DNA of 18,343 bases from Gemmatimonadota bacterium (GCA_036679645.1 JAZDCY010000001.1:1-18343); one strand, 5' to 3'; positions 7,513 through 18,343 are shown, counted from the stretch's first letter. A program made the numbers and translations. The notes: generated by a model from the letters alone, not told the origin.

Positions 7513-9327
7513 GTGTCTGAGAGTCCGCTGGCCGAACAGGAACCGCGTCGTCAGCGCGTGAGCCGCCCGACGCCGGCACACCTGTTCCAGCAGCGTCAGG
7601 CGGCTGAGCCGCCCGGGTCTAGCGAAGTGGCCGCACCCGCACCTCGGGCGACCCGCGTGATCCCCGCACTTGCCGGCATCGACGTTCCCGCTTCGGGCAC
7701 CCCAACCACGGAACCCGTCCCCGACTACCCCCCCGATCTCGTCTTCATCGTTCGCGATGACGGCAAGGTTCTCTTTGTGAATCGGGCGCTGGGACAACGC
7801 GCCGAAGATGATGTCATCGGATCTGAAATTTACGACTGGGTATTCCCCGAGCAGCACCAGGTGGTCCGCGAGTGCCTGGGGCGCGTGTTCTCCTCTGGGC
7901 GCGGCGACAGGCATGAGTTGAATGGGCTGCAGCAGCACGATCCGGACGCGTGGTACGAATGCCGCGTGTCCGCCAACCTGCGTGACGGAAAGGTAGTCTC
8001 CGCAACGATCATCGCGCGGGACGTGACCCGCTTCAAACAAGCGGAGATCGCACTCCGGGCCGCGTTCGCAGAGAAGGAACAGCTGCTCGAGGAGCGCACC
8101 GCAGATCTCGATACGGCGAAGCGGGACATGGCGCGCCGCCCCAGCGACGGTGACACGGCCCGCCGCGAGTTGGAGCGCTTCCGCGCGGTTGTGGACGAGG
8201 CCGGGGAGGCCATGTTCGTCACCGACAGCGCGACACGACGGGTAGTCGACGTAAACGAGACCGCCTGCCGGTGGCTGCGGCAGGAGCGGGCGGAAGTGAT
8301 CGGGCGAGCGGCGGACGAATTGGGAATCGAGTTCCAGGTCGTGCCACCCGAATCCGCCGATCTGGTCTTCACCGAAACGCGCGATGCGCGGCGGCCATTC
8401 GTGCTCGACGGCGGTGTGCATCGGCGAACCGACGGCAGCACGTTCCCAGTCGAGGTCGCGGTCACGTGGCACCACGTGGGAGAGCAGGAATACGTGCTCG
8501 CCGTGGTCCGCGACGTAAAGGGCCGGCGCGAAATGGAAGAGGCGCTGCGCGAGACCGAGGCCCAGTACCAGGCACTGTTCGATCAATCGTGGGACGCTGT
8601 CTACCTCACCACGCGCGCCGGAGAGATCGTCAAGGCCAACCAATCTGCCATCGGTCTGTTCGGATACGCCAGCGAGGACCTCATTGGGCTCGACGCGCGC
8701 GAGTTAATGCCTCGCGCCGAGGATATCCGCGCCTTTCAGCAGGGCATGGCGGAAGATGGGCGCGTGGAAGCTCTCGAGGCACACTTCCGCAGCAAGACGG
8801 GGGGTGAGTTCGCCGGGCAGCTCTCCGCCACGAGCCGGAGGGACGCCCAGGGACGCCTGCTCGGATACCAGTGGGTAGTGCGCCACGAGGCGGCCAACGG
8901 ATCCGCCGCCGGTGACTCAGCCGAGGAAACGCCTGGCGTGGGCGACCATCGCAGCGTGCTCCTGATCGACGCGGAGCAGCGTGTACTCGACGAGACACGT
9001 TCCGTACTGGAACACGCGGGGCTACGCGTGCTCACCGCCACCGAGCCCGGTGAAGGAGCGACGCTGTTCCGCGCCCACGCCGGCGAGGTGGGCGCCACCG
9101 TCATGGCAACCGCACTCTCGGAGACGGCGTCGGGCAAGGCCGTACGCACGATCCGCGAGCTCGACCCGGAGGCGCGCATCGTGCTCGTGAGCGCCGACGA
9201 TCCCTATGCGGTCGCCGAGCGCTTTTCGGACGTGCGCATCTCGGCGTACCTGCGGCGGCCCGCACACCCATTGACGTTGGTGCAGACCGTACGAGATCTG
9301 GTCGCCGCCGCATCAAACGGCCGCTGA
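7513..9327 (+). CDS. Cytoplasmic PAS-PAS-PAS protein with degenerate C-terminal receiver domain; no kinase domain
   Basis: GGAGGAG RBS before GTG. Three PAS/PAC units ending ARDVT, VRDVK and WVVRH, joined by coiled coils. REC-like fold from SVLLIDAE to AYLRRP with Ala at the phosphoacceptor position. Confidence 0.88.
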   Translation: MSESPLAEQEPRRQRVSRPTPAHLFQQRQAAEPPGSSEVAAPAPRATRVIPALAGIDVPASGTPTTEPVPDYPPDLVFIVRDDGKVLFVNRALGQRAEDDVIGSEIYDWVFPEQHQVVRECLGRVFSSGRGDRHELNGLQQHDPDAWYECRVSANLRDGKVVSATIIARDVTRFKQAEIALRAAFAEKEQLLEERTADLDTAKRDMARRPSDGDTARRELERFRAVVDEAGEAMFVTDSATRRVVDVNETACRWLRQERAEVIGRAADELGIEFQVVPPESADLVFTETRDARRPFVLDGGVHRRTDGSTFPVEVAVTWHHVGEQEYVLAVVRDVKGRREMEEALRETEAQYQALFDQSWDAVYLTTRAGEIVKANQSAIGLFGYASEDLIGLDARELMPRAEDIRAFQQGMAEDGRVEALEAHFRSKTGGEFAGQLSATSRRDAQGRLLGYQWVVRHEAANGSAAGDSAEETPGVGDHRSVLLIDAEQRVLDETRSVLEHAGLRVLTATEPGEGATLFRAHAGEVGATVMATALSETASGKAVRTIRELDPEARIVLVSADDPYAVAERFSDVRISAYLRRPAHPLTLVQTVRDLVAAASNGR

Positions 9328-9462: not shown

Positions 9463-10704
9463 ATGCGTACGACCATCGCCATTCTCGGTACGGCAACGGC
9501 AATTCTGATCGGCGTACAGGCGTGCGGTGACAGCGTGCCCATACCGTTCAGCGTGGACGTGTTTCCCGCCACCCCCTCCATCGAGGTGGGGGCAACGGTT
9601 TCGCTGAACGCGACCGTCAGGGACGAAGATGGTGTTGTGCTCGGGGCATCCGGTCTCGCGTGGTCGACCAACGCCGTATCCATAGCCACGGTGACCTCCA
9701 CAGGCCTGGTGACTGGTGTCGCGCCGGGGACGGCCACCATCACCGCGCAGGCGGGCCTTGCCGCGAGCGGCACCGCGACGGTCACGGTTCTCGCCGGCGT
9801 GGTGAGCGTTACCGTTTCCCCGCCCAACGGGTCGCTGTCACCCGGCCAGACGCTTCAACTCACCGCCACGCCGCGCGACGCCGCTGCGCAGCCGGTGCTC
9901 GGCGCGGCCGTGACGTGGTCGAGCAGCAACAACACGGTCGCAACGGTCAGCACCACAGGGCTCGTGACCGCGGTTGCGGATGGAGCGGCGACGATCACCG
10001 CCCAGAGCGAAGCGGTCACGGGTACCGCAGCAATCTCGGTGACCACGGTCCAGATCCGGCTCAACGTCGAGAATCAGCTCGCCAGCTCGGTGGATATCTC
10101 GACAGGCGGGACGTTCCTGGGACGGCTCGCGCCGGCCGGCGTCCAAAACTTCATGGTGGCGCAGCCCGATACGCTGCGACTCACGTGGGACCTGGTGAGG
10201 GATACGACGACCTCCGGTACGTCCATCGGTGACGTGATCATCGCGACATTCACCGTCCCGCTGACACCGACGGACACGTTGCTCTTCTTCGCGATCGACA
10301 ACGTCATCGGGAACGATACGATCTTCGCGCCGCGCATCACCAACAACTCCGGCGTGGATCTTCTCATGGCTGTCAACGTCACGCTGCCCGACTCTAACTT
10401 TTGCAACTGCGTCGTGGGCAACGGCGGGACGCAGGTGGCCATGGGCTACTACCGATGGGTCCCGAACACCAACGTGCGGGGGTACAACACCGGATCCAAC
10501 TACACCGGCGGTTTCGTGTTCTGGGACCGCCCGGGAATGAACGCGTTCCTCCAGGCCCTGGATGGAATCGTGCTTCTCGTGGCTAACTCGGCGCCGCCGG
10601 GACCGCCGTCCTTCATCCGTGGGACGTTGGAGCAGCCCGCAGTTCGGCCCACGCGTAGGAATGACGGTTTCCAGGAGAGGCTGCATCCTCCGCCAGATCG
10701 TTAG
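9463..10704 (+). CDS. Lipoprotein with two bacterial Ig-like (Big_2) domains and an unknown C-terminal domain
   Basis: Lipobox-like VQAC; two repeats of the W-S-S...VATV...GLVT.VA.G.ATITA pattern; C-terminal beta domain containing CNC. Confidence 0.88.
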   Translation: MRTTIAILGTATAILIGVQACGDSVPIPFSVDVFPATPSIEVGATVSLNATVRDEDGVVLGASGLAWSTNAVSIATVTSTGLVTGVAPGTATITAQAGLAASGTATVTVLAGVVSVTVSPPNGSLSPGQTLQLTATPRDAAAQPVLGAAVTWSSSNNTVATVSTTGLVTAVADGAATITAQSEAVTGTAAISVTTVQIRLNVENQLASSVDISTGGTFLGRLAPAGVQNFMVAQPDTLRLTWDLVRDTTTSGTSIGDVIIATFTVPLTPTDTLLFFAIDNVIGNDTIFAPRITNNSGVDLLMAVNVTLPDSNFCNCVVGNGGTQVAMGYYRWVPNTNVRGYNTGSNYTGGFVFWDRPGMNAFLQALDGIVLLVANSAPPGPPSFIRGTLEQPAVRPTRRNDGFQERLHPPPDR

Positions 10705-10851: not shown

Positions 10852-11517
10852 ATGGCATTCTTCACGCGGCTGAGCACACGCGGGGCTATGACCTTCGCGT
10901 CACTTGGTCTGTTGGCCGCACCCGCGGCTGCCCAGGTGCACTTCACACCCTTTGCCGGCGCGTACTATAGCGCGTCGAGTTTGGGCGATCTCCAGGACCC
11001 GTCGCTCGCTGGTGCAGAAGTCATTCAGACGAGCGGCGTGGTCGTCGGCGGCATGATCGACTTGCCGTTGAGTCCAAGTTTCGGTATCGAGTTTGGCGGG
11101 TCGATCGGCATCAGCGACGCCCGATTCCAGATCACGCAGACTCTCAGCGGGACGCAAGTTACCGCGTTCATCGATCAGAGCGGGTGGATCGCGCATACAT
11201 CGATCACGGGACGGATCAACGCCACGCAGACGGGCAACTTCTTCCTCTTCGCGGGACCCGGATTGTCGCTCCGGGGTGGGGATGCGTGGACGGAAGATAA
11301 CGCCATCAGCCAGGGGCTTGGAAGTAGCGATCGGATTGCGTTCGGCGGCGTCGTCGGTCTGGGCGTTCTCGCGCGCGTCGCACCGGGGTTCACGCTAGAC
11401 GTGCGAGTTGAGACCTTTGTCTATACGTTCGACCCCGATGGGGATGACCCCGAGTTCGACTCGAGCGCCAATGCCGATATCCTCGTGAAGGTCGGGCTGC
11501 GGCTACCAGGAACCTGA
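10852..11517 (+). CDS. Outer-membrane beta-barrel protein (small, probably 8-stranded)
   Basis: GGAGA RBS; signal peptide ending AAA-Q; amphipathic strands FTPFAGAY, FGIEFGGS, FFLFAGPG, FGGVVGLG, LDVRVETF and ILVKVGLRL. Confidence 0.82.
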   Translation: MAFFTRLSTRGAMTFASLGLLAAPAAAQVHFTPFAGAYYSASSLGDLQDPSLAGAEVIQTSGVVVGGMIDLPLSPSFGIEFGGSIGISDARFQITQTLSGTQVTAFIDQSGWIAHTSITGRINATQTGNFFLFAGPGLSLRGGDAWTEDNAISQGLGSSDRIAFGGVVGLGVLARVAPGFTLDVRVETFVYTFDPDGDDPEFDSSANADILVKVGLRLPGT

Positions 11518-11572: not shown

Positions 11573-14500
11573 CTACTGACGGACGGTAATGGCTACGGGG
11601 ACGCGGCTCGCCTGGGTGCCGCCGCTCCCCAACTGCCCGTTGTCGTTCGCGCCCCAACACAACACCTGCCCATCGGTCGTGAGGCCACAGGTATGCTTCT
11701 CGCCGGCGGCCAGGACACGGAAGCGGTGGTTCCCGCTGACCGGCGTGGGTTCCCTGCGGTTGTCGGCCTGGCCCGTCCCCAACTGCCCCTCGCGTCCGCG
11801 GCCCCAGCAGACGGCACGGCCCTGCCGATTAATCCCGCAGGCATGCTCGCCGCCCACGACGATCGAGGTAAGACCAGTTGTCCCAACCTGGGACGGACTG
11901 GTACGCTGGCGAGTGGACCCGTCGCCCAACTGCCCCGCGTTGTTCTTGCCCCAGCAGTAGGCGGTGCCGTCTGTCGCCACACCGCAGGTGAACTCAGTGC
12001 CTGCCGCGAGTTGCGTGAAGCGCTGATCGCCGGAAACTCCGGTCGGTGACGGAAGGTGCTGCAGCATGCTGCTGCCGACCTGGCCCGACCAATTGTCACC
12101 CCAACAGATCGCCTCACCGGCGCGCGTGAGACCACAGCTGTGACGGCCACCGGCGACCACCTGCCTGAAGCGTTGGTCGCTCGAGACCGCGGTGGGCTCG
12201 GTACGCCTGCTGGTCGAGCCATCACCCAACTGGCCCCGGTCGTTCTTGCCCCAACAGAAGGCCTCGCCCGCTGACGTGAGACCACACGAGTGCTCGTTCC
12301 CGAGCGACACCATCCGGAAGCGGGTAGTGGCGACGGACGATGTGGAGGCGCTGCGGTCCTGCGATCCCAACTGTCCGTCGTTGTTGCGCCCCCAGCAGGA
12401 CAGTTGGCCACCGCGCAGCGCGCAGGTGTGCCGCCCGCCGGCGACGATGGTATCGGCGGCCCCGCTCCGCGCTGCAGGACGGGGCACGCGCTCGCCGGCA
12501 CCGCCCTGAACCTGACCCTCCGCGTTGCGCCCCCAACACCAGGACGCGCCCTGGCCATCCACGACGCAGGTGTGGGACCCGCCTGCTACGAGTCCGGTGA
12601 ATGGCGCCACCGTCGGTGCGACAGGTGTTGGCTGTGCGGGCACGGCCCTGTCGCGCGGAGCCGGTGGCTTGGCCGTGTCTCGCACCGCCGGCGCGCGTGC
12701 CGTGTCGCGCGGCTCCACCCGGGGCTGCGCCCGCCGTGCGGTGTCACTGGGCGTGTTGACCGCAACCGGCGGCTTGATTACCGGAGCGGGCCGCGTCACG
12801 AGCACACGAGCCCCATCCTCGGCTCCCTGGGCGCTGGCCAGCACCCGGGTCTCACCGGCGCCCACAGCCGTGACGTTGCCCCTCGTCGTTACACGCGCGA
12901 TCGCGACATCCTGCGTGCGCCAACTCACCGTGCGCTCTAATTGCTGTCCGTCGGCGTCGAGCGCCCGCGCGGTGATCCGTTGGCTCTGGCCTACCGCGAG
13001 GTTGATCGTGCGTGGTCGGACCTCGACCGACGCTACGATGGCGCGGGCGGGTGTCGCTGCACCCTGGTCACCCGTCGCGACCGGCTCCGGCGCGAGCACG
13101 CGGATCGTCGCCGTCGAGGAGATGCCGCCGCGCGACGCGCGGATCTGCGTCACGCCCGCCGCAACACCCGACACCGTCCCATCGGCGCGCACCGTCGCCG
13201 TCGCAGGATTGGCGGATGCCCAGTCCACCGCCTCGTCGGGGAGTCGGTTTCCGTTCTGATCGAATTGCTCCGCCCGGAAACGCCGTGTCCGCCCCACTAC
13301 CACCTGCCCCGTGGACGGCGAGAGCGCGATCTCCGTGAGGCGCGCGTCGTCGGAAGCCACGTTGACGACAGCTATGGCGGAGTCACCGCCGTAACGCGCG
13401 ACGATCTCGGCGCTGCCGGCCGCAATCGCGACCACGCGGCCGCTGGCATCGACGCTCGCAACCGTCTCATCATTCGATACCCACTCGATACCGGTCCCTG
13501 AGGCCCCCGCAAGCTGGAGTTGCTGACTCTGATCGACCCGGAGCCCAAACTCGGAAGGCACCAGCGCCAACAGCGTTCCGCCAGATCCACCTTCGCCTCC
13601 ACCTCCCCCTCCCCCCCCGCCGAGGGTCATGATCACGATCACGACCACCACCGCCAGCGCAGCCACGACGCCCGCGATGAGTTTGACGGGGAGGGCACGC
13701 CCAGCCACGGTGGCCGGTTCTGCTTGCACCGCCACCGTCGCTGGTGCGGTGCCGACCGAATCGACTGCCACCGTCCCAGGAACGAGATCTTCTGAGGGGC
13801 GGTACGCACCAGCGTCACTCGTGGCGACTGCCGCCGGGGCGGTCGACCGCTCCGGCGGCTCTGATGGCGCGCTGGGTGCCTGGAATGGCGCGGTCGGAGC
13901 CTCCATCTGTTCCTGACTCGGCGTCTCATCTCTGGGGGGTGCCACCATTGGCTGAGTCGGGAGCGATGGGTCCGAGACCTGCGGCGGCGCGGCCGACTGC
14001 GGCGACGGACTCATCGGTGTCGTGAACACCTCGGTGGGCGGCACGAAGTCCGGCGTGTTCACCAGCCGTACGATGTCTTCTTTGATCGGGTCTCCTGGAG
14101 GAAGCGGGTGGCCGCCAAGGGCGCGCACCCCGTCGAGCACGTTCGGGAAGCGGTCCGCTGCATCTTTCGCGAGCATGCGCTCGAGGGCGGTGCGCACCTC
14201 GCCGGGGAAAGGGCCTTCCCGCAGGCGTTCGATTGGCGGAAGAGGATCGTCCACCTGCTTGCGCATCACCGTGAGCGGATCGCCGTGATAGGGCGGCTCG
14301 CCATTGAGCATGTGATACGCGACCATGCCGAGCGAGTACTGATCGGAGGCCGCCGACACCGGCTGCGCGAGACACTGCTCGGGACTCATGTACTGAGGCG
14401 TCCCGATCGCGGCGCCGTGCATTGTGTGGCTGCGGCCACCTTTCAACTTGGCGATCCCAAAATCGGTGAGCACCGCATTGCCGCGTGCATCGAGCATGAT

Positions 14501-15067
14501 GTTGCTCGGCTTGACGTCACGGTGGATCACCGGCTGCGCGGCCGAGTGGGCGTACGACAGCGCCAGGCCAATCTCGTAGATGATGGACTGCACGACGCCG
14601 AGTGGGAGCGGTCCGTTTTGCAGTACGTCCCCGAGTTCGCGTCCCTCGATGTACTTCATCACGAAGAAGTGGAGTCCGCCGGCCTGCTTGGCGGCATGGA
14701 CCGTTACGATGTTCTGGTGTTCGAGCTTGGCAACGGTACGCGCTTCCTGACGGAAGCGGTCCACCATGGTCGTGTCGGCCATGAGGGTCGGCGCCATGAC
14801 CTTGATGGCGACTTTCTTATCGAGCGCGATGTCGTGGGCCAGGTACACCGCCGCCATCCCCCCGTGCCCCAACTCCCCACCAATGTCGAACTCGCCGCGC
14901 GTCGCCTTGCGCAACGCGTCCAGCACCATGTCCCACCCGGCCCCACCGTCGCTCGGGGAAGGGGGAGCGTCCGCGCCAAACGCCGGATTCGTCTCGCCGC
15001 ACTGAGCGCAGAACTTGTGCTCGAGCGTGAGCGTACCGCCGCATTTTGTGCAGAACGTCTGGGACAT
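11573..15067 (-). CDS. Transmembrane Hanks-type Ser/Thr kinase: Zn ribbon, kinase, Pro-rich linker, TM, 3 Big_2 domains, 7 RCC1 repeats
   Basis: CTKC/CAQC; GHGGMAAVY, VAIK, HRDVKPSN, DFG, GTPQYMSPEQ and SDQYSLG all intact. TM LIAGVVAALAVVVVIVIMTL; three Ig-like repeats; seven CWG-x4-GQ repeats. Confidence 0.95.
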   Translation of the reverse strand: MSQTFCTKCGGTLTLEHKFCAQCGETNPAFGADAPPSPSDGGAGWDMVLDALRKATRGEFDIGGELGHGGMAAVYLAHDIALDKKVAIKVMAPTLMADTTMVDRFRQEARTVAKLEHQNIVTVHAAKQAGGLHFFVMKYIEGRELGDVLQNGPLPLGVVQSIIYEIGLALSYAHSAAQPVIHRDVKPSNIMLDARGNAVLTDFGIAKLKGGRSHTMHGAAIGTPQYMSPEQCLAQPVSAASDQYSLGMVAYHMLNGEPPYHGDPLTVMRKQVDDPLPPIERLREGPFPGEVRTALERMLAKDAADRFPNVLDGVRALGGHPLPPGDPIKEDIVRLVNTPDFVPPTEVFTTPMSPSPQSAAPPQVSDPSLPTQPMVAPPRDETPSQEQMEAPTAPFQAPSAPSEPPERSTAPAAVATSDAGAYRPSEDLVPGTVAVDSVGTAPATVAVQAEPATVAGRALPVKLIAGVVAALAVVVVIVIMTLGGGGGGGGGEGGSGGTLLALVPSEFGLRVDQSQQLQLAGASGTGIEWVSNDETVASVDASGRVVAIAAGSAEIVARYGGDSAIAVVNVASDDARLTEIALSPSTGQVVVGRTRRFRAEQFDQNGNRLPDEAVDWASANPATATVRADGTVSGVAAGVTQIRASRGGISSTATIRVLAPEPVATGDQGAATPARAIVASVEVRPRTINLAVGQSQRITARALDADGQQLERTVSWRTQDVAIARVTTRGNVTAVGAGETRVLASAQGAEDGARVLVTRPAPVIKPPVAVNTPSDTARRAQPRVEPRDTARAPAVRDTAKPPAPRDRAVPAQPTPVAPTVAPFTGLVAGGSHTCVVDGQGASWCWGRNAEGQVQGGAGERVPRPAARSGAADTIVAGGRHTCALRGGQLSCWGRNNDGQLGSQDRSASTSSVATTRFRMVSLGNEHSCGLTSAGEAFCWGKNDRGQLGDGSTSRRTEPTAVSSDQRFRQVVAGGRHSCGLTRAGEAICWGDNWSGQVGSSMLQHLPSPTGVSGDQRFTQLAAGTEFTCGVATDGTAYCWGKNNAGQLGDGSTRQRTSPSQVGTTGLTSIVVGGEHACGINRQGRAVCWGRGREGQLGTGQADNRREPTPVSGNHRFRVLAAGEKHTCGLTTDGQVLCWGANDNGQLGSGGTQASRVPVAITVRQ

Positions 15068-15259
15068 GGACCGCCGACCTCCTGACTCTGGTCCAAGATA
15101 CAGTTACCCCACCGAGAATACGAGCGATCCCCGGCGTCTATGAGACCGGCAATCAGCGTGCCGCCGTTGCTCGTTTTCGCGAGGCCCGCCGCGCCTAGCG
15201 TGTCGTGGGTCACCACGTAGATTCTCCTCGACAACACCCCCGTGTCCCGGAGTCGGCAA

Positions 15260-17086
15260 ATGCGCGTGCGTTTGGTGTTCGTAACCGGCAGTCAGGCCGG
15301 CACGACGATCGAGGTCCAGCAACAGGAGATAACGATCGGCCGTAATCCGCGGAGTACCGTCACTTTCCTGCCTGACGAAGTGGTCGTGTCGGGACGCCAC
15401 GCCAAGGTGTACGTCGAAAACGGTGTGGCGTACCTGCGCGACGAGGGAAGCCGCAACGGTACGTTCGTCAACGGACAACGCATCGACGTGATCGAGCTGG
15501 CACCGGGCCAGACGCTGATGTTTGGGCCCAACGGTCCCACCGCGCGCGTCGAGGCGGTGGACGCAGGAGTGGCCCCGGCCACGGCGTTCGTGCCCGAGAG
15601 CGCGCTCGGAGCCCCGCCCACCGTCAGTCCACCGGCCGCCGCACCGGCCGCCGCACCGGCCGCGGGCGCCGGGTCGGGATCGGGACTCACAGGGTTGTAC
15701 CACATGGCGCGCGCCGGCGCCGACCAGCGCGCCGGCGGACGCGCATCGCAGACGTCGATCATGAAGGAGTTCGTCCGACTCGCGGCCGATCGGACCTCCC
15801 GGCGCAACCGCATGATCATCGCCGGCGTCGCGGTGGGTGCCGTCATAGCGATCGCCGGCGTCTACATCTTGGGGCAGCGGCAACAGGCCGGTCTCGAGGG
15901 CGCCTTGGCCGAGTTGACCGGCGTGTTGGAGTCGGAGCGGGGTGCCCGCGCGGCGTTGCAGGAACAGCTGACCTCGCTGAGCGGCCAGGCCGAGGAATGG
16001 CAGATGGCGTCGGAATCGTTGCGGACGGAGACGGACGAGATGCGCCAGCAGGTGGCGCAGGGACAGCGCGAGCTGGCCCAGCAGCGGGCAGCGGTAGAGC
16101 AGGATCGGCGCTTCGGACCGACCGTCACGCAGCGCTTTGCCTCTGGCGTGGGGATTATCCAGGTCGTCTACGGCTACCGCGACGCGAGTGGGAGTTGGCT
16201 CCACCTGCAGGGTAACGCGGACGGCCGGATCGGCCTCACCACGTCGGGCGGTGTGCCGTTCGAGATGGCGGGGCACGGCACCGGGTTCCTGGTGGATGCG
16301 GAGGGATGGCTAATAACCAACCGGCACGTGGCCCAGATGGGGTTGGGCGAGCAACTGGAGATCGGCGGGCAGCATTTCGAGTCGCAACCGCGCCGCTCGC
16401 GCATCTATTTCCCGCCGGGCGACAAGGTGTACGATTTCACCGTCGAGGGCGTTTATCAAGGCGGTGAGAACGCCCCCGACCTGGGGCTGTTGCGGCTACA
16501 GACCCGACCATCCGGCGTCCCAGTGCTCCCCGTTGCTACGCGCGCGAACGTGGTGCCCGGCGAGGATGTCGTGATGCTCGGCTACCCGGGGGGTGCGGAG
16601 TTCACGACCGGGCGGGTTGGCGATCCCGCCATACGCGACGCCATGGTGCGTGCGGGCCAGCAGGCACAGTCCCAGTGGATCCAGCAGGGCAACTTGGGCC
16701 CGGCGTTCGAACGTCTCCAGCAGGTGCGGGATGGCAAGGCAGAAGCGCTCGGAACCGAAGATTTGCTCATCGGACTGCTTCGCCAGGTTGGGTATTTGGC
16801 CATGCTCGACGCGCAGGGTCAGCACCGGCAGATCCAACCGCACCTGGCGATGGCCTCGGTCAGCGACACGACGGCCCGAACGATCATCTATTCGGCCGTG
16901 GGCGGCTCGATCGGGGGCTCGAGTGGTGGGGCAATCATCGGCCGCGACTTGCTGGTTGTGGCGGTGAACTTCGCCGGCCAGGCCAAGGATGACCGGGGCA
17001 TGAGCATCCAGCGGCAGATTGGCGTCCCGGCCCGCTTCATCTGGGACCTGTTGCCAAGTAGCGTGGCGTCGCGGGCGCGGCACTGA
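15260..17086 (+). CDS. FHA domain - TM - coiled coil - trypsin-like serine protease
   Basis: FHA motifs IGR, SGRH and RNGTFVNG; TM MIIAGVAVGAVIAIAGVYILG; coiled coil. Protease motifs GTGFLV, TNRHV (His), PDLGLL (Asp), LGYP and GSSGG (Ser). Start 15260 (alternative GTG 15242). Confidence 0.9.
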   Translation: MRVRLVFVTGSQAGTTIEVQQQEITIGRNPRSTVTFLPDEVVVSGRHAKVYVENGVAYLRDEGSRNGTFVNGQRIDVIELAPGQTLMFGPNGPTARVEAVDAGVAPATAFVPESALGAPPTVSPPAAAPAAAPAAGAGSGSGLTGLYHMARAGADQRAGGRASQTSIMKEFVRLAADRTSRRNRMIIAGVAVGAVIAIAGVYILGQRQQAGLEGALAELTGVLESERGARAALQEQLTSLSGQAEEWQMASESLRTETDEMRQQVAQGQRELAQQRAAVEQDRRFGPTVTQRFASGVGIIQVVYGYRDASGSWLHLQGNADGRIGLTTSGGVPFEMAGHGTGFLVDAEGWLITNRHVAQMGLGEQLEIGGQHFESQPRRSRIYFPPGDKVYDFTVEGVYQGGENAPDLGLLRLQTRPSGVPVLPVATRANVVPGEDVVMLGYPGGAEFTTGRVGDPAIRDAMVRAGQQAQSQWIQQGNLGPAFERLQQVRDGKAEALGTEDLLIGLLRQVGYLAMLDAQGQHRQIQPHLAMASVSDTTARTIIYSAVGGSIGGSSGGAIIGRDLLVVAVNFAGQAKDDRGMSIQRQIGVPARFIWDLLPSSVASRARH

Positions 17087-17123
17087 TGGCTGTAACCCTC
17101 TCCGATTCGGTCATTTATCCCCC

Positions 17124-17152
17124 TTGACTGGGGGTGGCAGCCCGTCTACAAT
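17124..17152 (+). promoter_or_regulatory. rRNA operon sigma70 promoter
   Basis: TTGACT-17 nt-TACAAT about 190 nt upstream of 16S. Confidence 0.85.
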
Positions 17153-17191
17153 ACGGTGCTACGCAGGAATTTTTCTCGTTCCCGCGCAGCT

Positions 17192-17203
17192 TGCTCTTTG
17201 ATA
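17192..17203 (+). promoter_or_regulatory. rrn boxA antitermination element
   Basis: TGCTCTTTGATA versus consensus TGCTCTTTAACA, in the rRNA leader. Confidence 0.8.
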
Positions 17204-17337
17204 ATCGAAGCGAAACGGGATTGGAAAGATGTGCGGCCCTGTGACACGACGGCCGATCAGACGGTTGTCGGTGAGGGAAGTACTCTGATTTTTTGTGATT
17301 CGGACGATCAGTCGTTCGAGGAGCTAATCGAATTTCT

Positions 17338-18343
<1,006 letters not shown>

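Follow-up and report, generated by a model that had tools for sequence, protein, structure and literature searches.

A receptor kinase and an FHA-bearing membrane protease encoded head to head in Gemmatimonadota: a rare, conserved pair with a probable outer-membrane input

Genes at the locus

The DNA analysed here, called the window below, is a stretch of 18,343 nucleotides from a Gemmatimonadota bacterium (GCA_036679645.1 JAZDCY010000001.1:1-18343) and forms the start of contig C1 of its genome (G000; 4.05 Mb, 92.7% complete). It carries the gene for a receptor Ser/Thr kinase and, divergent from it, a gene for a protein in which a cytoplasmic FHA domain is joined through a transmembrane helix and a coiled coil to an external protease; a third gene, convergent with that of the kinase, is predicted to encode a small outer-membrane β-barrel (Table 1). 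We find that the kinase and the protease make up a real, conserved and rare module. It would be a form of kinase/FHA-effector signalling in which an external protease is the output and the input probably lies in the outer membrane. Fetched loci, protein entries and contigs are labelled L, P and C, respectively.

Table 1. Features of the kinase, protease and barrel genes, with positions in the window
Feature	Position	Strand	Basis or remark
Predicted small outer-membrane β-barrel	10852..11517	+	convergent with kinase; PF13505 E 1e-7, above cut-off; signal-peptide-like N-terminus; ~8 strands by eye
Receptor Ser/Thr kinase, 1164 residues	11573..15067	-	Zn ribbon, Hanks kinase, Pro-rich linker, transmembrane helix, three Big_2, RCC1/crinkly-type propeller
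RCC1/BLIP-II-type propeller, seven blades	11588..12601	-	C-x8/9-CWG pair per blade (predicted disulfide, extracytoplasmic)
Three Big_2 (bacterial Ig) domains, predicted periplasmic stalk	12794..13570	-	Pfam, model
Single transmembrane helix of kinase	13622..13687	-	residues 461-482
Juxtamembrane motif FTTPMSP, candidate autophosphorylation and FHA-docking site	14006..14026	-	residues 348-354; conservation
Hanks-type RD kinase domain, catalytic motifs intact	14108..14890	-	Pfam, motifs, alignment
N-terminal CxxC...CxxC zinc ribbon	14996..15052	-	weak DZR match; cysteines nearly invariant
Possible σ70-like kinase promoter	15095..15123	-	weak; TAT..T hexamer ~25 nt before start codon
FHA-transmembrane-coiled coil-HtrA-like serine protease without PDZ, 608 residues	15260..17086	+	
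Cytoplasmic FHA domain, phosphothreonine-binding residues intact	15260..15556	+	
T-x-x-hydrophobic site, T165-S-I-M	15752..15763	+	start of helix entering membrane; conservation
Transmembrane helix of protease	15815..15871	+	residues ~186-204
Predicted periplasmic coiled coil, ~10 heptads	15875..16102	+	model, heptad pattern
Chymotrypsin-fold protease domain	16115..17080	+	His 16325-16327, Asp 16478-16480, Ser 16922-16924
Three-helix insert, ~77 residues, right behind GYP motif	16592..16822	+	model helices 445-521; profile alignment to HTRA1 GSPFSLQN

The kinase matches Pkinase (residues 62-306), Big_2 (three times) and RCC1_2 (seven times) in Pfam. All the elements of a Hanks-type enzyme are present, namely the Gly-rich loop (GELGHGG at 64), the VAIK lysine (86), the helix-C glutamate, HRDxKxxN (HRDVKPSN at 182), DFG (202), an activation-loop threonine and the xPE sequence (GTPQYMSPE at 222), and T215 and T223 of the activation-loop region are invariant in an alignment of 12 rows. 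By these motifs the protein is an intact Ser/Thr kinase of the Hanks type for which catalysis is predicted. Pfam finds no PASTA repeats in it, and it scores 250.6 bits against the NF033483 cut-off of 450. In an AlphaFold2 model the kinase domain matches PknB (Foldseek), and the propeller block, with a predicted local distance difference test score (pLDDT) of 91-98, superposes on the 7-bladed UVR8 with a root-mean-square deviation of 1.6 Å. The cysteine pair is found in 7/7 blades, which fits an oxidising compartment. Two Pro/Arg-rich linkers of the ectodomain (663-673 and 763-819) are modelled with low confidence.

In the protease, the GR, SxxH and NG blocks of the FHA domain are intact and widely shared among 55 aligned relatives (R28 in 53/55, S44 in 53/55, H47 in 54/55 and N66 in 53/55), and the domain folds like GarA and FhaA in a fold search (1.3-2.1 Å). 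Such blocks on an FHA sandwich define the phosphothreonine (pThr)-binding members of the family (PMC4238996), and pThr binding is predicted accordingly for this one. The catalytic triad, H356/D407/S555, is present in 55/55 aligned relatives. A basic RTSRRNR stretch precedes the transmembrane helix, and the coiled coil behind it is modelled, at low pLDDT, as a single helix running from the cytoplasm to the protease domain. In 15 sequences the heptad a/d positions are 63% hydrophobic as against 2% elsewhere, with the register picked by eye on the protease of the window; the pattern only suggests that the protease is an oligomer.

Fold and profile searches place HTRA1, DegS and DegQ as the best matches of the protease domain, at a structural identity of 12-16%. 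No PDZ domain was found in the protein by Pfam, and the chain stops about 50 residues past the catalytic serine; PDZ-less members of the HtrA family are known (Deg5; PMC3640471). The protease scores 18.8 against the cut-off of 450 for the NCBIfam HtrA model NF041521, and neither it nor the kinase reaches the cut-off of any NCBIfam model. The HtrA segment opposite the three-helix insert, GSPFSLQN, we take to be activation loop LD. Loop LD has an activating role in HtrA proteases (PMC11252331, PMC6172425).

Since the protease starts at the ATG at 15260, which aligns with the starts of five orthologues, the gap between the genes is 192 bp. A preliminary description of the locus had given a divergent arrangement with a gap of about 190 bp, a kinase with intact motifs, three Ig domains and seven RCC1 repeats, and a partner with FHA domain, transmembrane helix, coiled coil and external His/Asp/Ser protease; these assignments hold up in the domain, motif, heptad and model analyses above. 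The zinc ribbon at the N-terminus of the kinase, the insert in the protease and the convergent barrel gene are additional to it. No promoter was called in the gap by a σ70 consensus scan, and the weak candidate in Table 1 coincides with columns that are invariant, as judged by eye, in an alignment of six intergenic regions.

We also considered a chimeric assembly of the junction. One contig of run X1, possibly the source sample, covers 14495-17370 with zero differences, and a contig of run X3, from another study and about 90% alike, bridges 14907-15238. As contigs from two runs and two studies cross the gap, a chimera is unsupported.

The head-to-head arrangement is conserved

A protein search returned 14 full-length orthologous protease clusters (36-92% identity), and the named relatives of both proteins belong to Gemmatimonadales or Gemmatimonadota. 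In 6/6 orthologous loci examined as DNA the kinase lies head to head with the protease: the window, L021, L022 (the same as L101), L023, L102 (where the kinase runs into L273) and L103, together about four independent lineages. Seven orthologues on contigs below 4 kb are uninformative for linkage. For six further entries the protease and the kinase have longest contigs of identical size (54167, 29343, 49134, 12485, 46050 and 76826), an indirect sign of linkage.

The proteases form one clade (18 rows, support of 98 in the approximate likelihood ratio test, SH-aLRT) and the kinases another (15 rows, 100), and the two clades correspond. Both trees are quick IQ-TREE runs (LG+G4) with SH-aLRT as the only support, in which long-branch joins were flagged and the deep branching is not relied on; that of the proteases omits L101 and L241 as duplicates and L111 and L028 as truncated. 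Among 401 genomes of the order, members of the protease clade and kinases of >53% identity co-occur in G000 and G098 only. A phylum-wide search gave 3/401, the same three as before, and no new orthologue; no more than 3-5 candidates were scored in each genome of these searches, and orthologues may have been missed. The preliminary description had made its proposal depend on conserved co-occurrence and divergent synteny, and both are observed.

With 107 (phmmer) or 113 (local hidden Markov model) Hanks kinases and six FHA proteins in the host genome, a kinase beside an FHA gene calls for a chance control. Using a crude gene caller, we counted a head-to-head kinase for 28 of 2996 non-kinase genes of the host, an adjacent one for 140 and one within two genes for 250. 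The conserved adjacency of kinase and FHA-effector genes that characterises the PknF-Rv1747 type is thus present at these loci. Identities of the individual domains co-vary positively for every domain pair (0.60-0.83 over 9 protein pairs), as linkage alone predicts, and are not used as evidence of contact.

Downstream of the pair the neighbours vary, and include an rRNA operon, a Zn-ribbon/kinase-fragment gene, a type VI secretion system (T6SS) cluster and TIGR02270/Imm49 genes. The pair might thus be read as a T6SS regulator in the place of PpkA and Fha1, given that the T6SS cluster is directly downstream in L023 and L103, that TIGR02270 and Imm49 genes are downstream in L102, and that the cluster of G098, situated between the protease gene on one side and the genes for the barrel and the barrel-RCC1 fusion on the other, yielded no FHA, kinase or PP2C gene over the 38 kb analysed (L244 and L245, G098 C10:124000-149500). 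We regard this as highly improbable, since VipB/TssC occurs in only 1/4 pair-bearing genomes searched and the score of the FHA protein with the TagH model, 34.7, falls short of the cut-off of 120. For the host genome, which at 92.7% completeness gives no tblastn match to VgrG, TssG or PAAR, the role is largely refuted.

A small gene in which two fragments resembling the first kinase lobe surround a Zn ribbon accompanies the module at L021:7563-8198, L022:9914-10483 and L244:11428-12324; it was not found in G000.

A barrel gene as the likely third member

The barrel gene is single-copy in the host and has matches in 23/401 genomes. Twenty barrel loci were fetched, selected solely by similarity to the barrel. 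Of these, 16 have a kinase-Ig-RCC1 gene next to the barrel (2 frameshifted), 3 have an RCC1 gene that runs off the contig and 1 has neither; the barrel is in tandem with its RCC1 neighbour in 4 and convergent with it in 15. Fusions of barrel, in part Ig, and RCC1 sequences are encoded at L022:1772-3694, L021:1-1338 and L244:8923-10602. That in L022 joins a barrel to an Ig domain and a propeller; this Ig-propeller part is 55% identical to the tip of the adjacent kinase and probably arose by local duplication. Such fusion proteins are possibly decoys or co-receptors. In G098 the barrel is about 27 kb from the pair, beyond the T6SS cluster and beside a barrel-RCC1 fusion.

Because its homologues adjoin RCC1-propeller genes in 19/20 loci and are sometimes fused to them, the barrel is the foremost candidate for the input to the propeller. 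The preliminary description saw a two-protein loop here; the pair is real, but the system likely has three genes, the outer-membrane barrel having been overlooked. In 8 of 20 loci selected by the kinase, the gene convergent with it is small and barrel-like but of a different kind, in each case with a weak PF13505 match below the cut-off.

Two side observations concern such genes. Genes of a second family of small barrel-like proteins are convergent with propeller-less kinase-Ig receptors in L299, L300, L304, L305, L309, L310, L313 and L318. In the window, a probable lipoprotein with two Big_2 domains is encoded at 9463-10704, just upstream of the barrel gene.

The propeller could have another partner outside the membrane, namely the protease itself, which it would bind and inhibit in the manner of BLIP-II until a ligand displaced it, phosphorylation being secondary. 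The similarity of the propeller to BLIP-II in sequence (E 8e-14) is in keeping with this, as is the restriction of the long insert to the kinase-linked protease clade. However, the same propeller is present on many receptors that have no protease neighbour and are linked to the barrel instead, and the insert, itself poorly conserved, varies with the propeller no more closely than with the kinase domain (rank correlation 0.64 vs 0.60), which makes this inhibitory role very unlikely.

Candidate phosphosites in kinase and protease

Just past the catalytic domain, the sequence F-x-T-P-[LMH]-S-P occurs in 17/17 kinases of the partner clade, 0/66 other kinase hits and 1/107 kinases of the host itself. 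The mean identity of the FTTPMSP segment is 0.71, as compared to 0.69 for the kinase domain and 0.23 for the rest of the linker. Since the motif was defined on the clade, this conservation, as read from the alignment, is a mark of constraint and not of partnership. In the protease, T165-x-x-hydrophobic is kept in 14/15 orthologues and the threonine in 43/55 rows of the family; T165 could be a phospho-switch.

Related proteases beside unrelated kinases

The host genome encodes two more paralogues with FHA domain, transmembrane helix, coiled coil and trypsin-like domain, so three in all, each within two genes of a different kinase. The first (G000 C22:44422-49374) is part of a core operon of Gemmatimonadales with the gene order Zn-ribbon-FHA-FHA / kinase / PP2C / protease, with related loci in L184-L199, L204 and L205; in this clade PP2C is directly upstream in 21/21 rows and a kinase next in 18/21. 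The genes flanking this operon have homologues at 12, 16 and 15 of the 21 loci, respectively. We take these genes to be an amidase, anmK and murQ, and on that assumption they hint at a role in the cell wall. The second paralogue (G000 C14:20496-24481) has two FHA domains and faces a soluble tandem kinase with one degenerate and one intact domain. Its clade is linked to the tandem kinase in 8/14 rows (loci including L201, L203, L208-L210, L213 and L215).

The partner kinases of the three host genes fall into three separate clades of the tree. That such proteases recur beside unrelated kinases, and beside a phosphatase, is the strongest indirect indication that they are phospho-regulated. In a protein atlas, clusters that combine FHA and trypsin are most frequent in Gemmatimonadota, with others in Acidobacteriota and Pseudomonadota. 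Within this broader theme of the phylum, the pair in the window is a single pairing specific to its lineage. Separately, L227 and L231 hold a distinct kinase-RCC1 receptor clade in operons with FHA genes, to which L227 adds PP2C.

A proposed outside-in, then inside-out relay

From the observed linkage, we propose that the receptor kinase, the FHA protease and usually the barrel form an envelope relay that runs outside-in and then inside-out, a reading to which we give a probability of a little under one half (about 0.48). In this relay the three Ig domains would lift the propeller to the outer periplasm, where, as the linkage and the fusions suggest, it would contact the barrel or something that the barrel captures. 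Clustering would then lead to autophosphorylation of the activation loop and of FTTPMSP, as in PknB-type kinases. The FHA domain of the protease would dock on the pThr of FTTPMSP, and the kinase may subsequently phosphorylate T165, by analogy with PknB-FhaA and PknF-Rv1747. The last step is the most speculative: docking might gather the protease at the receptor or shift the continuous helix and coiled coil, upon which the HtrA-like domain would turn on, possibly through the helical insert, and cut a local envelope substrate. The version with every part specified, in which a CRINKLY4-like kinase has the barrel as its ligand or antenna and the FHA-read pThr signals back through one helix to a PDZ-less HtrA-type protease via the activation-loop insert, is tentative and on balance doubtful.

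Several observations weigh against the relay. The pair is rare, and searches of congeneric genomes did not find it. The sister clade of the protease (13 rows) has a kinase neighbour in 0/7 loci with at least 2.5 kb upstream, no kinase is nearby at L181, three Acidobacteriota loci and L029, and an FHA gene is present in 0/20 fetched loci chosen by similarity to the kinase domain; neither family therefore needs the linkage. Kinase entries P0041, P0046, P0157 and P0164 have no protease match by shared longest contig among the entries listed, and in the double-FHA clade 6/14 rows have no kinase neighbour. Any of the roughly 107-113 Hanks kinases of the host could feed the FHA domain in the window. 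The barrel adjoins the kinase in only 4/6 pair loci, and a single genus accounts for 13/20 barrel loci. A docking motif defined on a clade could be due to common ancestry alone, and T165 could equally be a helix N-cap. The insert is the least conserved part of the protease (mean identity 0.38, minimum 0.12). In L021 (2269-5446) the reading frame of the kinase breaks between Ig stalk and propeller, by sequencing error or in reality; breaks of this kind are also seen in L282 and L293.

The sister families also bear on another explanation, that the genes are a co-regulated cassette with no dedicated pairing, in which the FHA domain reads the pThr of many kinases, the protease serves the envelope in general and the kinase has other targets. 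Families that work unlinked would suit it, as would divergent genes without a common transcript and the high number of kinases in the host. We nevertheless hold it to be rather unlikely, since the linkage persists over about 60% divergence of the protease and through changed flanks, FHA-transmembrane-trypsin genes adjoin three unrelated kinase clades, and a clade-specific threonine motif is kept in an otherwise variable linker.

The distribution also suggests an order of events. As sister kinases have no FHA protease and an FHA gene is present in 0/16 barrel-linked kinase-Ig-RCC1 loci, the receptor family is likely older, and the protease a later recruit to one of its clades. A protease added to an existing unit of barrel and receptor may act in feedback, clipping the Ig/propeller ectodomain or the barrel when docked through its FHA domain and so ending or resetting the signal. 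Judging by their lengths, the coiled coil and the three-Ig stalk would place the external domains at a similar height, and the Pro/Arg-rich linkers of the ectodomain could be cut. These linkers are poorly conserved, however, and most loci with barrel and receptor lack such a protease, so that feedback seems an unlikely purpose of the pair, less so than inhibition by the propeller.

Comparison with known systems

The relay has its closest parallels in mycobacteria, where Hanks-type membrane kinases are encoded beside FHA proteins that dock on pThr (PMC4238996). PknF-Rv1747, PknH-EmbR and PknB-FhaA/FhaB are all of this kind; Rv1747 is regulated through the linker threonines T152 and T210 (PMC8339232), and FhaA binds the phosphorylated juxtamembrane region of PknB (PMC12077195). 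In contrast to these pairs, that in the window is encoded divergently, its effector crosses the membrane once and has the enzyme outside the cytoplasm, and its sensor consists of an Ig stalk topped by an RCC1-type propeller; the host is a diderm with a linked outer-membrane barrel.

A relay from membrane kinase to FHA protein in a Gram-negative envelope is known from PpkA-Fha1 (PMC6213207), and the PpkA-Fha1-PppA pathway of the T6SS is alike in this respect. It differs in that no T6SS was found in the host genome, the FHA protein of the window is a transmembrane protease and not a secretion scaffold, and no phosphatase lies beside the pair. The T6SS threonine phosphorylation pathway receives its input through TagQ and TagR.

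On the sensor side, CRINKLY4 (ACR4, PDB 7A0J) is likewise a Ser/Thr receptor kinase. Its ectodomain is a seven-bladed RCC1/BLIP-II-like propeller, every blade of which carries a C(x~10)CWG cysteine pair (PMC4617170), and a preprint on the ACR4 structure describes the per-blade disulfides as unique to CRINKLY4 and reports no known ligand (bioRxiv 10.1101/2020.08.10.245050). The propeller in the window has the crinkly repeat in 7/7 blades, at a spacing of 8-9, and matches CRINKLY4 in sequence (E 2e-20). The propellers of UVR8 and HERC outscore CRINKLY4 by sequence and fold, and ACR4 and BLIP-II are not among the matches listed by Foldseek for the kinase model; with ACR4 absent there, the likeness to CRINKLY4 is confined to the sequence hit and the motif. 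CRINKLY4 kinases have a signal peptide, an N-terminal ectodomain with a TNFR-like Cys-rich domain, and a C-terminal kinase. The bacterial protein in the window has the reverse orientation, with the kinase at the N-terminus and no signal peptide, and its stalk is made of Big_2 domains where CRINKLY4 has the TNFR-like one.

With HtrA proteases and DegS the protease shares the chymotrypsin-fold His/Asp/Ser domain, and it is membrane-anchored, as is DegS. It differs from them by the lack of a PDZ domain and by its cytoplasmic FHA domain, long coiled coil and three-helix insert. A further trait of the HtrA/DegS group is a trimer in which L3 and LD act between subunits to activate the enzyme.

No protease of the FHA-transmembrane-trypsin type with a kinase, and no bacterial receptor kinase with an RCC1 propeller, is described in the papers returned by searches aimed at this layout, in agreement with the preliminary description, which knew of no characterised system with this layout. 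The extracts of PMC7159879, PMC2877116, PMC6213207 and PMC9218822 describe neither.

Other features of the window

Directly past the protease gene, a σ70-like promoter (TTGACT-17-TACAAT, 17124-17152) is followed by the 16S rRNA gene, which begins at 17338 (17338-18343 in the window). A protein with three PAS domains and a receiver, in which no histidine kinase domain was detected, is encoded at 7513-9327. The first 2560 nucleotides (1-2560) are lower in G+C (0.53-0.61) and end near 2515-2552 in a stretch, possibly an integration site, that resembles a tRNA 3' half; no tRNA was called by ARAGORN.

Implications

The envelope proteases DegS and DegP are switched on from outside, by peptides that bind their PDZ domains. 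If the relay is true, control of a protease by a cytoplasmic receptor kinase domain would reverse this direction and amount to inside-out activation of periplasmic proteolysis, and it would give a function to the FHA-transmembrane-trypsin proteins that are common in Gemmatimonadota. The barrel provides a named and testable candidate input for an orphan class of receptor kinases, and genomes of the phylum encode about 100 kinases each. The cysteine pattern that has been called unique to plant CRINKLY4 is also present on bacterial receptor kinases, which offer a simple system for propeller ligands; if the fully specified relay is correct, the crinkly propeller, which still lacks a ligand, would gain a bacterial model amenable to experiment.

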